A DNA stretch of 63,994 nt, counting the filler, from Acidimicrobiia bacterium (lineage in GTDB: Bacteria; Actinomycetota; Acidimicrobiia; Spongiisociales; CAZKJJ01), in assembly GCA_046759765.1 (NCBI GenBank). It is 4 parts of 4 records of this genome, joined end to end, with 100 filler letters (N's around TTAATTAATTAA, not from the genome) between each part and the next. Parts side by side here need not be neighbours in the genome. Positions count along the whole stretch, not along the records: positions 40,865 to 60,720 come from JBHICV010000031.1; positions 60,821 to 63,994 come from JBHICV010000227.1; 2 more parts are not named here. One strand, written 5' to 3'. Position 1 is the stretch's first letter. The number at the start of each line of letters is the position of its first letter. Positions 60,353 through 63,300 of this stretch are shown one piece after another. Made by a program: the position numbers.

Positions 60353-63300
60353 CTCCTCTCAGATCTCCTGCGCCTGCGACGGATAGGGACCGACAGTTTT
60401 GTTACTCCTGCCCGAAGGCAGTGGCCAGGTCATTTCTGCCTGACTCTGCATGTCGCCATGCAGCTCGGACTGTATCTTCACTCGATCGAGTGTTCGGCGT
60501 GCAGTCTCTGAGGGTTCTGGAGACTCCTCCAGTCTTCCCTGCTGATTGTCCGGATCACCTGTCAGATTGTCACTGTTCATCAAAATGAACGAGTACTGCA
60601 GGATGCGTCCGGGTTTTCCAGCATATAGCCGAATTTATAGACAGCAACGGCGTCACTGTCTCACGACGTTCTAAACCCAGCTCGCGTGCCGCTTTAACGG
60701 GCGAACAGCCCGACCCTTGGNNNNNNNNNNNNNNNNNNNNNNNNNNNNNNNNNNNNNNNNNNNNTTAATTAATTAANNNNNNNNNNNNNNNNNNNNNNNN
60801 NNNNNNNNNNNNNNNNNNNNTCCCGCGCGGCACGCCACCAGCACCGGATTTCGCGGATTCGTGCGACAGCCTCCCCCACAAGGGATTCCGGCCCGTAGCG
60901 AGGCTCTCTTCTCGGTGCCCCCGGCAGGATTCGAACCTGCGACACCCGGTTTAGGAAACCGGGTTTAACGGGCGAGAAATCCCTTTAGTAAGGGCATTTT
61001 GGCCTTCAGGAGTCCGCGAGGAATCCGCGGAAGATCCTGGAAGGGTCTGATCAGAGTCGTTCGAGATCCGGCCTCCGGCCACGCTACGTAGTCGCAGCGA
61101 CCGTGCCTCGTGAGGAAGCCGCCTCGAATCAAGGCGTTGCCACCCTCGTTGCGTCTCACTCATAGAAGAAACAATCGTTCCATTTGTGAGTGGTAGTGGT
61201 TATGCTGTCGAGGTGGACTTCGTTCGTCCCATCGAGGCCATCATCCCCGGCGTGCGGGGTCGGGTTCTCGCCGTCCTGGCGCAGACGACTGCCGACCTCA
61301 ACCTCCGGACTATCGCACGTCTCTCCGACGTGAGCTTGGCTCAGGCATCGCGCGTGCTGCCTGGCCTCGTCGAGCTGGGACTCGTCGAGCGCCGAGAGGC
61401 GGCCCCTTCATCGCTGTTCCGGCTCGTTCGCGAGCACGTTGTTGCGCGCCCGTTGCTCGAACTGGCACGAGCCCGGGACACGATGGTCGAGGAGATGGGG
61501 CGGGCGGCTGGCGACCTTCCGGTGGTGCCGGTAAGCGTGATCGTCTTCGGTTCGTTCGCTCGGGGCGAGGCGGACGAGGAGAGCGACATCGACGCCGTCT
61601 TTGTTCGAGCAGCGGACGCCAACGAAGCCGACGAGTCGTGGTCGGCGTCAGTCGAACAGTGGAGAGGCGCCGTGCGTCGGGCAAGCGGCAACCGTGTCGA
61701 GGTGCTCGAGGTCGGGTCCGACGAGGTAGCGGCTCGGCTCGGAAGCAGGCGGCAAGTCTGGCGCGAGATCCGGCGTGACGGACTGGTCGTGCACGGACTG
61801 AACCTCGACCAACTCGAGAAGCGCGTCGATGCCTAGGAAGGTGCGGACGAGAACCGTGAGCGCCGCCCAGGTGCGCGCCTACGTAGCCAAGGCCGAGGAG
61901 TACGTCGCCGCCGCATCGAGCGAACTTGAGGCTGGACGTGCCATCGCCGCAACGAGCCTGGCGATCCACGCCGCGATCAATGCCGCCGACGCCGTGTGCG
62001 GCGCACGGCTCGGCAGGCGGGCAGCGGGTCAGGACCACGACCAGGTGCTCGTGCTTCTCCGAGAAGCGGGCAAGGACGGTGCCGACCTCGAGCAGGAGCT
62101 TCGACGGCTGCTGCCAATGAAGACAAAGGCGGAGTACGAGCCCGACGACATCCCGGTCTCGGCGGCATCCAAGGCTGTCGAGCGCGCTCAGAGATGTGTG
62201 ACTGCCGCTCGGCGCGTCACCCCGTCCGGGAAGTGACAGAACCGCACCTGCCGCTAGGAGACGGAAGAAACTATGACTCAGGCCGACGCCGGCGAGGGCA
62301 TCGAGAAGGTCCAGGAGATGGTGGAGGCCGCCCGCCGGCTGCTCGAATCGGGAGAGCTGTCACCCTTCGGCTGAGACCGCCGGCGCTACGGAACCGGAGC
62401 CACGTACCATCATGCCTGTCACTTCTCCTCGTGGTTTGACTGCACCATCAGCAACCGCGTCTCGGTACGCGGAGTCCAGGTGGTCGGCCAGCTTCTCGAA
62501 CTCAGAGGGGAAGAGGTGGCCGTAGCGATCGAGGCTCACTTGGACGCTGGAATGGCCGAGGTGCTCGGAGATGGCCTTGGGACCGGCTCCCTGGGAGATG
62601 AGCAGGCTGGCAGCGGTGTGCCGCAGGTCGTGAATGCGTACCTGCTCACCCAATCCCGCCGCGGCGAGCGCTGGTCGCCAGATTCGACGGTGGAAGTTGC
62701 TGTGGCGGACGGGTGCGCCCTGGGGTGAGGTGAAGACCAAGGCATCCGCGTCTGCGTTGACCTCGCTCGCCAGGTGCCACGCCAGGCGATCCTTGAGGAA
62801 GGCCGGCAGGACCACCGTACGCCGCTGATAGGTCTTGGTCGGGCCCCAGTGGATTCGGCCACCCACATCCGCGACCGAGTCAACGACCTCGATTCGCGAG
62901 CGCAACAGATCGCAGCGGGCGCGGCGCAGCGCTGCTGCCTCACCCCACCGCAGACCCCCGTACCCGAGCAACAGGACCAGAGTTCCGTAAGGAGGCCTGG
63001 CGGCGTCGGCGAGGGCATTGAGCTCGCCCGCGGATAGGAAGTGCATCTGCGTTCTCGGCAGACGGGGCAGATCGAGGCTCTCTACCGGGTTCCTTGCCAG
63101 ATAGCCGGTTCGCATGGCCATCTTGCACATCGCTCCGAGAAGGTGAGCGGACTGGCGTACGCGAGACGCCGAAAGGCCCCTTCCTTGCAGTGTCCCGGCC
63201 CACTCGACGACGGTCATCGGGTCGATGCGGTTGATCGGTGCGTCACCGAAGGCCGGCAGGATCTGGTTCCTGAGAAGGCTCCGGTAGCCCTCGAGGGTCT

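Follow-up and report, generated by a model that had tools for sequence, protein, structure and literature searches.

Results

Locus and site of the insertion

The window, that is, the whole stretch of 63,994 nt of Acidimicrobiia DNA analysed here, is pieced together from several contigs, with N linkers between them at 20496-20595, 40765-40864 and 60721-60820; the source assembly is a MAG, 92% complete and in 308 contigs. The contig with the rRNA genes stops within a 23S rRNA gene at position 60720, and about 360 nt of the 3' part of this gene are present. On the minus strand, to which all features described below belong, the locus consists of a 5' exon (60655-60720) corresponding to positions 2539-2604 of the E. 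coli 23S rRNA (90.9% in blastn against rrlH; cut by the contig end), a 261-nt insert (60394-60654), a 3' exon (60102-60393) that starts at E. coli position 2605 and takes in the rest of the gene (blastn alignment to 2605-2884; Rfam model followed to position 2925) and, downstream, a 5S rRNA gene (59928-60044; Rfam 5S_rRNA, 107.6 bits). The 5' exon ends in ...GUGAGACAGU at 60655, and the 3' exon begins with UCGGUCCC at 60393. The insert, running from 60654 to 60394, has a G as its first and as its last base; as these terminal bases are unlike the adjoining exon bases, the junction is not shiftable.

The rrlH gene of E. coli K-12 (2904 nt), which reads GACAGTTCGGTC at 2599-2610, served as the reference for the site. 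In blastn it aligned to the locus in two pieces, 2539-2604 and 2605-2884, with the 261 nt between them. This split confirms computationally the L2604 site, between U2604 and U2605, which the genome-wide survey's note had assigned by hand; the coordinates given there for a 261-nt minus-strand intron were likewise found to be exact. When joined, the exons equal the uninterrupted sequence of 10 loci of the order and of 58 of 101 order genomes, in line with the earlier statement that joining restores the universal sequence. Among 30 order loci compared, 10 read GAGACAGT directly followed by TCGGTCCC, 16 carry an insert exactly at this point, and four did not have both flanks covered. A search of the organism's own genome for LSU rRNA returned no match, and even the partial gene in the window was missed.

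Group I identity and coding content of the insert

At 60446-60664 the insert matched positions 1-253 of the Rfam model Intron_gpI (RF00028) with 69.3 bits, above the cut-off of 50; E-values were 1.6e-15 for the whole window and 2.1e-17 for an 822-nt stretch. The match was nested in an LSU_rRNA_bacteria hit of 316.4 bits with a 263-nt insertion at the intron site, which reproduces what the survey's note had reported. As the Rfam match ends at P9, it is the exon alignment that defines the final 52 nt of the intron and its 3' boundary. P2 is missing from the Rfam alignment, and the assignment is to group I as a whole, Rfam having one model for all group I introns that does not distinguish subgroups such as IA3 or IB4. 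The same model exceeded its cut-off in three of eight order loci scanned, L007 (65.5 bits), L002 (64.5 bits) and L008 (60.6 bits), whose introns are 286-459 nt long; the four loci with introns of about 730 nt and the truncated L005 scored below it.

Seven ORFs of at least 20 aa lie across the intron region. The longest in sense orientation, 74 aa from a TTG start and extending into the exon, had no Pfam match at E<=0.01, which bears out the description of the intron as ORF-less; a 114-aa antisense ORF overlaps the rRNA, and the Pfam scan covered the sense ORF. The intron was found to be without a maturase or endonuclease gene and, in contrast to 19 of 19 tested ORFs of its relatives, its ORF gave no match to LAGLIDADG_1 in Pfam. 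An intervening sequence of the RNase III-processed type, a simple stem-loop replacing the tip of a helix, was considered and rejected: the insert has a full group I core, and its site lies in the peptidyl-transferase loop and not at a helix tip.

Secondary structure and covariation

The structure was assessed on 23 distinct ORF-less L2604 introns, aligned with MAFFT (alignment A1), by means of a hand-drawn model with the helices P1, P3, P4, P5, P5a, P6, P7, P9.0, P9, P9.1 and P10. In this model 95.8% of cells pair, compared with 28.6-37.3% when the partners are slid, and 21 of the 63 model pairs changed on both sides, a score that none of 500 shuffles reached. RNAalifold independently recovered P1, P5a/b, P6/6a, P7, P8, P9 and P9.1, and the window intron sequence alone folds to the same helices (z -3.57; 0 of 200 shuffles as good).

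P1 (60639-60661) is formed by seven pairs between the exon sequence AGACAGU (60661-60655) and the internal guide GCUGUCU (60645-60639; intron positions 10-16), and its stem extends into the intron (GAC/GUU). As the survey's note had proposed for the window copy, a U.G wobble marks the 5' splice site; it is found in 23 of 23 introns, with 99.4% of P1 cells paired, and the helix was recovered by the single-sequence fold and by RNAalifold too. Six of the seven pairs are invariant because the exon is universal, hence the lack of covariation in P1. A candidate P10 strand, GCCG (60648-60651; intron positions 4-7), was read from the sequence opposite CGGU of the 3' exon (+2 to +5, 60389-60392); it is short, and 60% of its cells are paired in the alignment of the 23 introns.

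Within the core, P3 joins UUCGGC (60628-60633) to GCCGAA (60493-60498) by six pairs that are 100% paired with three double changes, and P4 joins UGCUGG (60618-60623) to UCAGCA (60540-60545) by six pairs, also 100% paired, five of which are invariant. The P5-P5a-P5b extension (60549-60613), present in the MFE fold, contains an unpaired ACAAU bulge; seven of nine P5a pairs show double changes, and the P5b stem covaries according to RNAalifold. It is followed by the P6/P6a hairpin (60512-60539; loop 60524-60527), in which the three pairs of P6 are 100% paired and one shows a double change (A-U/G-C). P7 (5' strand 60502-60508, partner 60467-60472) crosses P3 as a pseudoknot and has six pairs (99.3% paired, two double changes), with a bulged A beside an invariant G-C pair: alignment columns 252:308 and 250:309 are G-C in 23 of 23 introns, and column 251 is unpaired. 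By analogy, the G-C pair beside the bulged base would constitute the guanosine-binding site. P8 (60481-60490), with 3 bp and a GAUC loop in the MFE fold, is the shortest in the family and covaries in the relatives (RNAalifold, columns 266-269 with 294-297). The core joining strand J8/7, UGAAGAUA (60473-60480), occupies nearly invariant columns of alignment A1, the Rfam consensus being GAAGAUAUAGUC.

Covariation and the MFE fold further indicated P9.0, P9 (GCGA tetraloop), P9.1 and P9.2 (UUCG loop) at 60408-60465. In P9.0, AG at 60464-60465 pairs with CU at 60395-60396, and the P9.0 pair covaries (G-C in 14, U-A in six, A-U in one and C-G in one of the introns). P9 is 100% paired with three double changes and P9.1 97.8% paired. 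The 3' splice site is marked by the terminal G (omega-G) at 60394, which had also been noted before; it is present in 16 of 16 order L2604 introns, all of which end in ...CTG or ...GTG directly before TCGGTCCC.

Distribution of the intron family

With the 261-nt intron as query, blastn found matches in 68 of 401 order genomes and 36 of 107 genera (a tally that includes the unpublished G004), the best being 81% over query positions 9-232; these are the numbers of the earlier search. Using a junction pattern that gave no control hits, we found the L2604 3' junction in 18 of 401 order genomes (15 of 107 genera). The pattern GAGACAGTN{3,20}GCTGTC, which occurred in 85 of 401 order genomes, a count in which the unpublished G279 was flagged, was discarded as unspecific: its backward-read control behaved similarly, and many of its matches lay outside rRNA. 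In the subset G000-G100, either form of the site was seen in 64 of 101 genomes, six with the intron and 58 uninterrupted, and none of the six intron-bearing genomes had an intact site as well. Related introns also occur in the order at 1923, 1931 and 1951/1952; the rRNA contig of the present genome ends at about E. coli position 2539. One order locus (L023) seems to be interrupted twice, at ~2593 and at 2604.

At least 119 species genomes from about ten phyla have an intron of this family at the L2604 site. CPR, Omnitrophota, other Actinomycetota, Planctomycetota and Pseudomonadota are among the hosts, and the sequence GCTGTCT..AAAT..GGC after the exon is shared by all of the at least 119 matches listed. 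Of 22 loci checked from CPR, Omnitrophota and other phyla, 21 were matched by the window intron, and in 19 of these the match took in the 5' guide-P3 part as well as the 3' core. In all 22 the rrlH alignment piece ends at 2604-2607, and the next piece starts at 2605-2607 in 17. A near-identical copy, the mark of a recent transfer, was not seen; the highest core identity to another member is 83.9%. In a tree of the core, 14 of the 16 order introns fall into one cluster with moderate support (87/88), and from this clustering the family seems to have been resident in the order for long. The survey's note had called rRNA introns a trait of the order. The clustering bears out part of this claim, which as a whole is overstated: the junction is present in only 18 of 401 genomes and in about six of 64 informative ones, and the family extends to about ten phyla.

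Remnant of an endonuclease gene

Applied to the L2604 introns, a complete-intron pattern returned 39 long forms with an ORF of at least 120 aa, eight intermediates of 366-561 nt and 23 ORF-less forms of 261-320 nt; this pattern missed most CPR and Omnitrophota members, in which the 3' end is without GTAACA or the exons differ, and these are absent from the tree. All 19 ORFs tested from the 39 long introns matched LAGLIDADG_1 (58.9-92.2 bits). In the relatives of about 730 nt, the gene sits in the P6 loop and makes up about 470 nt, and it is at query positions 127-135 that the blastn hits of the long relatives are split. In the window, ATG and 17 further codons, MNSDNLTGDPDNQQGRLE (60527-60580), match the N-termini of the relatives' LAGLIDADG ORFs; in the 184-aa ORF of L015, for example, the counterpart MSSENPSGDPDDQQGRLE is followed by AYLSGFADGEG, and the LAGLIDADG domain that comes after the remnant there is absent from the window. 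The codons of the remnant double as the 3' strands of P5b, P5a, P5 and P4 and as the 5' strand of P6/P6a. On the core tree the ORF-less state required 15 changes, at least five of which are forced by well-supported branches.

Sequencing reads and number of 23S rRNA genes

The intron is present in Logan contigs of two DNA runs. One of these contigs spans the 3' junction, with 36 nt on one side and 81 nt on the other; another covers the 5' junction with only 30 nt on the exon side. These runs may be the assembly's own sample and, if so, are not independent of it; the DNA runs X1-X4 bear the label hydrothermal vent metagenome. Reads of the DNA runs X1 and X2 and of the RNA runs X5 and X16 were mapped at 90% likeness. 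In both RNA runs the exons were covered at huge depth; the intron was uncovered in X5 and covered in small parts at a depth of 0.6-22 in X16. The only joints across the intron in RNA reads ran from 60393 to 60659 (depth 18 in X5) and, having other letters at the junction, belong to the rRNA of other organisms. All exons in the two RNA runs were those of other organisms, and the reads speak neither for nor against splicing in the present one. Five genomes with an L2604 intron had exactly one sarcin-ricin-loop match each, which indicates one 23S rRNA gene in each; three of the five are complete chromosomes, in which the intron is of the long form, and the other two have ORF-less forms.

Discussion

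Probable splicing from the 23S rRNA

The results above establish what the element is, where it is inserted, its conserved and covarying structure, the loss of its endonuclease gene and the distribution of its family; that it is spliced from the 23S rRNA as a ribozyme, perhaps with a protein helper, is deduced from structure and conservation. For the reading as a whole, a genuine L2604 group I intron that derives from a mobile one and is removed by splicing, we put the probability at roughly 0.88. No other 23S rRNA gene of the organism seems to have been assembled. According to this model, the primary rRNA transcript would fold into the P3-P9 ribozyme core, and the guide GCUGUCU and the exon AGACAGU would form P1, the U.G wobble marking the point of cleavage. 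A guanosine from solution, docked at the P7 G-C pair, would then attack after U2604; subsequently, the terminal G261, brought into position by P9.0 (2 bp) and a short P10, would occupy the G site, and the 3'-OH of U2604 would attack after G261, thereby joining the exons as the universal GAGACAGUUCGGUCCC and freeing the 261-nt intron. The intron would persist since its core is kept by selection, unspliced 23S rRNA being useless.

Alternatively, the intron might be retained in the mature rRNA, or be cut out without ligation to leave a fragmented 23S rRNA, with no ribozyme splicing in either case. There are precedents for both: the 23S group I intron of Simkania has been reported to be unspliced (according to an entry in the reference list of PMC11270868), and removal of bacterial 23S intervening sequences by RNase III without ligation is described in the same paper. 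However, the elements that serve splicing only are preserved in the ORF-less copies, namely the U.G of P1 (23/23), the G-C pair of P7 beside an unpaired base (23/23), the covarying P9.0 and the terminal G. The site, besides, is in the peptidyl-transferase loop, two bases away from A2602, and the ribosome is unlikely to tolerate a 261-nt insert or a break there. We thus regard retention or breakage as improbable.

Still less probable, in our view, is that the intron-bearing gene is dead or of minor importance and that the organism lives on an intron-free 23S rRNA gene missing from the assembly. A MAG of 308 contigs that is 92% complete, with its 23S gene cut by a contig end, leaves room for such a copy, the more so as rRNA operons often assemble poorly. 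Nevertheless, the exons flanking the intron are intact (316.4 bits for LSU_rRNA_bacteria) and followed by an intact 5S rRNA gene, five intron-bearing relatives have a single 23S gene, no genome among G000-G100 has both forms, and runs X1 and X2 gave no contig in which this organism's exons are joined. That the intron was mis-joined to rRNA exons during assembly or binning, as the fragmented metagenome assembly might suggest, is the remotest of these explanations, given that 15 more order loci and at least 119 species genomes, complete chromosomes included, have homologues inserted at this very dinucleotide, that the adjoining exon is complementary to the internal guide and that separate Logan contigs have the same junctions; the survey's own dismissal of an artefact was well founded.

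If the ribozyme is active as proposed, the 23S rRNA of this genome would need splicing beside the catalytic centre before the ribosome works. For rRNA annotation or PCR across the region, the gene would be 261 nt longer than expected.

The endonuclease cycle and the host range of the family

Judged by its sequence, the window copy goes back to a mobile intron with a single-motif LAGLIDADG gene in its P6 loop and has been stripped down since. With the endonuclease gene deleted, the intron would be unable to home on its own. The LAGLIDADG_1 gene is typical of the L2604 family and not required, as PMC11270868 describes ORF-less members at the same sites. In the cyclic model of Goddard and Burt, as cited in PMC11270868, invasion is followed by decay and loss of the endonuclease, loss of the intron and re-invasion. 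Every stage is seen at the L2604 site, empty sites included, and there is no difference in kind from that cycle; the window copy represents the end stage before intron loss.

The window intron is a sound and fairly ordinary member of a family spread over many bacterial phyla, and the family outweighs the single copy in interest: all stages of the endonuclease life cycle are found at one homing site, the first 18 codons of the endonuclease are ribozyme core strands as well, and the hosts extend far beyond CPR, for which the site was published. It appears somewhat more probable than its opposite that rRNA introns are no speciality of CPR and that L2604 introns have a major and long-standing reservoir in free-living Actinomycetota (Acidimicrobiia and Thermoleophilia), with lineages that largely track host clades, many independent losses of the endonuclease and occasional jumps to Dormibacterota/Chloroflexota and other phyla. 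If so, the published picture, which confines rRNA introns outside CPR to a handful of thermophiles, pathogens and cyanobacteria, would be substantially incomplete. A survey with denominators could change the estimate of how frequent rRNA introns are among ordinary soil and marine bacteria. In addition, the short ORF-less forms, 253-320 nt in length, are compact candidate ribozymes.

Relation to known introns

Introns at L2593 provide one comparison. This group reportedly includes Cr.LSU with I-CreI in the chloroplast and, in cyanobacteria, an intron of Synechococcus C9 that is said to have been described by Haugen et al. 2007. The I-CreI gene lies in P6. Like the L2604 family, the L2593 introns reside in the domain V peptidyl-transferase loop, often have a single-motif LAGLIDADG gene and include ORF-less variants; since they are located 11 nt upstream, their internal guide differs. 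IA3 introns of archaea at LSU/2593 are also described by Nawrocki et al. 2018 (PMC6125680).

In cultured bacteria, 23S group I introns are on record for Coxiella burnetii (L1917/L1951), Thermotoga (L1931) and Simkania (L1931), according to the reference list of PMC11270868. They share with the present intron that they are bacterial 23S group I introns, some of them ORF-less, in hosts with one or few rRNA operons, whereas their sites lie in domain IV.

The closest known counterparts are those of CPR. At 23S site 2604 (23IS13), CPR bacteria have group I introns, often with LAGLIDADG_1, along with shorter ORF-less forms (Tsurumaki et al. 2024, PMC11270868). The survey's note had stated that there is no report of group I introns in actinobacterial rRNA, and our repeated literature searches agree; its suggestion of novelty was nonetheless overstated, as L2604 introns including the ORF-less forms had already been published for CPR in that study. 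Its authors regard group I introns at 2604 as unreported from other bacteria. The intron described here and those at CPR 23IS13 have in common the site, the intron family, the endonuclease family of their relatives and a patchwork of ORF-bearing and ORF-less forms, and they differ in that the host is an Acidimicrobiia MAG and that the window copy is without an ORF.

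Position and identity of the intron

On its minus strand the window carries the 3' end (~360 nt) of a bacterial 23S rRNA gene, with a 5S gene downstream; the window consists of several contigs with N linkers between them, and the rRNA contig stops within the 23S gene at position 60720. The gene is interrupted by a 261-nt insert (60654-60394, minus strand) that begins and ends with G, the 5' exon ending in ...GUGAGACAGU and the 3' exon starting with UCGGUCCC. The insert matches the full Intron_gpI model of Rfam (69.3 bits, cut-off 50) and is spanned by the LSU model with a 263-nt insertion (316.4 bits); the former match and the exon junctions confirm the genome-wide survey's note, which had described a group I intron here. 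The genome contains no other group I match. In blastn against the 23S gene rrlH of E. coli K-12 (2904 nt), rrlH positions 2539-2604 match the 5' exon and positions 2605-2884 the 3' exon; rrlH 2599-2610 reads GACAGTTCGGTC. As the exon pieces meet at 2604/2605, the intron is located between U2604 and U2605 (site L2604), two bases past A2602, in agreement with the position proposed in that note. A2602 has an established role in the peptidyl-transferase centre.

The next contig past the N linker holds a tRNA-like piece (60916-60973, minus strand) whose T-arm is GCAGG-UUCGAAU-CCUGC and whose acceptor end reads ...GGGGGCACC. Its score against the Rfam tRNA model, 25.9 bits, stays under the 29-bit cut-off, and ARAGORN called nothing for it; the piece may be part of a tRNA, what is left of an integration site, or the 3' end of a tmRNA-like gene. 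On a different contig, four tRNA genes are clustered within 360 nt (21073-21429, plus strand; 66.6-75.3 bits).

Predicted ribozyme structure

In the Rfam alignment the window intron possesses P1 and P3-P9 and lacks P2. The sequence allows us to draw P1 (guide GCUGUCU on exon AGACAGU, the splice site falling at a U.G wobble), a candidate P10 of 4 bp, P3 and P4, P5-P5a-P5b carrying an ACAAU bulge, P6/P6a, P7 in which a bulged A adjoins a G-C pair, a minimal P8, a 2-bp P9.0, P9 (GCGA loop), P9.1, P9.2 (UUCG loop), and the terminal G at the intron end. This drawing was tested on 23 distinct L2604 introns that lack an ORF, aligned by MAFFT together with short stretches of exon. Standard pairs occur in 95.8% of 1446 cells, as against 28.6-37.3% when the 3' partners are shifted by 1-3 columns; both sides change in 21 of the 63 pairs, and the covariation score was matched by none of 500 shuffles. 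Covariation is clear in P3, P5, P5a, P6, P7, P9, P9.1 and the 2-bp P9.0 (G-C 14, U-A 6, A-U 1, C-G 1), while P1 and P4 are nearly invariant and hence give no covariation signal for or against either helix. The candidate P10 is paired in 60% of cells and lies within a poorly aligned loop. RNAalifold independently finds P1, P5a/b, P6/6a, P7, P8, P9 and P9.1 in the same alignment and wrongly pairs P3 with P4, as a pseudoknot would lead one to expect. Folded alone, the window sequence yields the same helices (-103.1 kcal/mol, z -3.57, equalled by 0 of 200 shuffles).

Loss of the endonuclease gene

The longest sense ORF of the window intron (74 aa, TTG start, extending into the exon) has no Pfam match. 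Among the 70 complete L2604 introns that could be delimited, 23 are short (261-320 nt), eight intermediate (366-561 nt) and 39 long (696-756 nt), every long one with an ORF of 120 aa or more. All 19 of these 39 ORFs that were scanned match LAGLIDADG_1 (PF00961; 58.9-92.2 bits), and that of locus L015 has its nearest solved structures in domains of I-OnuI-type enzymes (E 2e-31). The ORF of the long forms is placed in the P6 loop, since split blastn matches break at query positions 127-135. Its opening ~18 codons, the start codon included, double as the 3' strands of P5b, P5a, P5 and P4 and as the 5' strand of P6. Precisely this N-terminal coding stretch is retained in the window intron (MNSDNLTGDPDNQQGRLE; in L015 MSSENPSGDPDDQQGRLE, continuing AYLSGFADGEG...), and the retained codons pass directly into the 3' strand of P6a. 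The endonuclease domain is thus cleanly lost, the dual-use codons being kept because they are part of the ribozyme core.

Probable need for splicing

A single sarcin-ricin-loop match was found in each of five genomes with an L2604 intron, three of them complete chromosomes and two with ORF-less forms. One match per genome indicates one 23S gene, so that in these organisms the intron breaks the catalytic loop of the sole 23S rRNA. Taken with the conservation of splice-specific elements, this argues strongly that the family is spliced; we infer the same for the window's own organism, whose genome is incomplete. The rRNA in the RNA runs compared with the window came only from other organisms. The intron with its junctions is also present in Logan contigs of two DNA runs, possibly from the source sample.

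Distribution within Spongiisociales

The survey's blastn tally was reproduced, with matches in 68 of 401 genomes and 36 of 107 genera of the order, including the unpublished G004. These matches span several 23S sites: 30 loci mapped to rrlH break at 1923, 1931, 1951/1952 and 2604, and at 2604 itself 16 have an insert of 261-750 nt, ten are uninterrupted and four do not extend across it. By a pattern specific to the 3' junction, which gave no control matches, 18 of 401 genomes (15 of 107 genera) carry the L2604 intron. Within genomes G000-G100, the site is intact in 58 (including G004) and occupied in six, with both forms in none, and roughly one in ten order genomes with the region assembled carries the intron. 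The survey's proposal of rRNA introns as a trait of the order is too strong as far as L2604 is concerned, where the intron is a sporadic element and no fixed trait.

Related group I-type inserts of ~280-750 nt reside at 1923, 1931 and 1951/1952 in loci L017-L030 (e.g. L018, L021, L025), sites that the window contig ends short of. Order 23S genes with inserts often have two or three each; L019 and L020 break at 1923 and 1952. Locus L023 (G381:C15) aligns to E. coli up to 2593 and again from 2605, with ~1480 nt between; because its 749-nt L2604 intron explains only half of this gap, a second insert of ~730 nt seems to lie at about 2593, 11 nt upstream of 2604.

Distribution in other phyla and evolutionary history

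When one genome from each species was screened for the 5' exon with the guide sequence after it, at least 119 loci were obtained, and guide, J1/3 and P3 sequence are the same in all 119 listed. By our own reading of record titles, the 80 titled loci among the matches listed comprise, as counts and not prevalences, 39 from Actinomycetota (Acidimicrobiia, Solirubrobacterales, Gaiellaceae and others), ten Omnitrophota-type, eight CPR, five Pseudomonadota, three each from Acidobacteriota, Armatimonadota, Planctomycetota, Elusimicrobiota and Chloroflexota/Dormibacterota, one Myxococcota and two unclassified. In all 22 loci missed by a first filter, an alignment piece against rrlH (blastn) ends at 2604-2607; 21 of the 22 are matched by the window intron, in 19 cases with both of its halves.

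The intron of L072, titled 'Acidobacteria bacterium', is identical to that of L007 from a genome of the window's order, and its deposited label may be wrong. In L034, L044, L079 and L101 (CPR, Gammaproteobacteria, unclassified bacterium) the alignment to E. coli past 2604 restarts at 2651-2657, which suggests a further insert near 2657 or strong divergence between 2604 and 2657; 2657 is another insertion site listed for CPR in PMC11270868.

An IQ-TREE phylogeny was built from 65 intron cores (285 columns), leaving out L051, L068, three duplicates and all loci without a delimited intron. One cluster holds 14 of the 16 order introns (support 87/88), and the window copy groups with L002, L010, L012 and L015 (81/92). 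L023 is the one order member placed within another Actinomycetota group (98/97), and Dormibacterota and Chloroflexota sequences are nested in a Thermoleophilia cluster. The picture, from a short alignment with many weak forks, is for the most part one of descent within clades, with transfers in some cases. The window core is at best 83.9% identical to any other core and thus gives no hint that it arrived recently. The ORF-less state requires 15 changes on the tree, at least five forced by well-supported branches, which fits repeated endonuclease loss.

Comparison with known introns

Our search of the full-text literature, with subscription journals outside its coverage, returned neither a paper on group I introns in actinobacterial rRNA nor one with the term 'L2604'. 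For archaeal group I introns, PMC6125680 gives a list with the sites LSU/1931, 2500 and 2593, and 2604 is absent from that list; an L1931 intron has been described in a WPS-2 genome (PMC4192840). For CPR 23S genes, PMC11270868 describes LAGLIDADG_1-encoding insertions at 1917, 1931, 1952, 2593, 2604 and 2657, with ORF-less forms at the same sites, and states that introns at several of the CPR sites were unreported in other bacteria, the known non-CPR cases being given as Thermotoga, Simkania, Coxiella and cyanobacteria. The window intron belongs to the family that has been described at the 2604 site of CPR. What is modestly new is the host range of this family, extended to Actinomycetota and several other non-CPR phyla, and the window intron is an ordinary end-stage member of this known mobile intron family.
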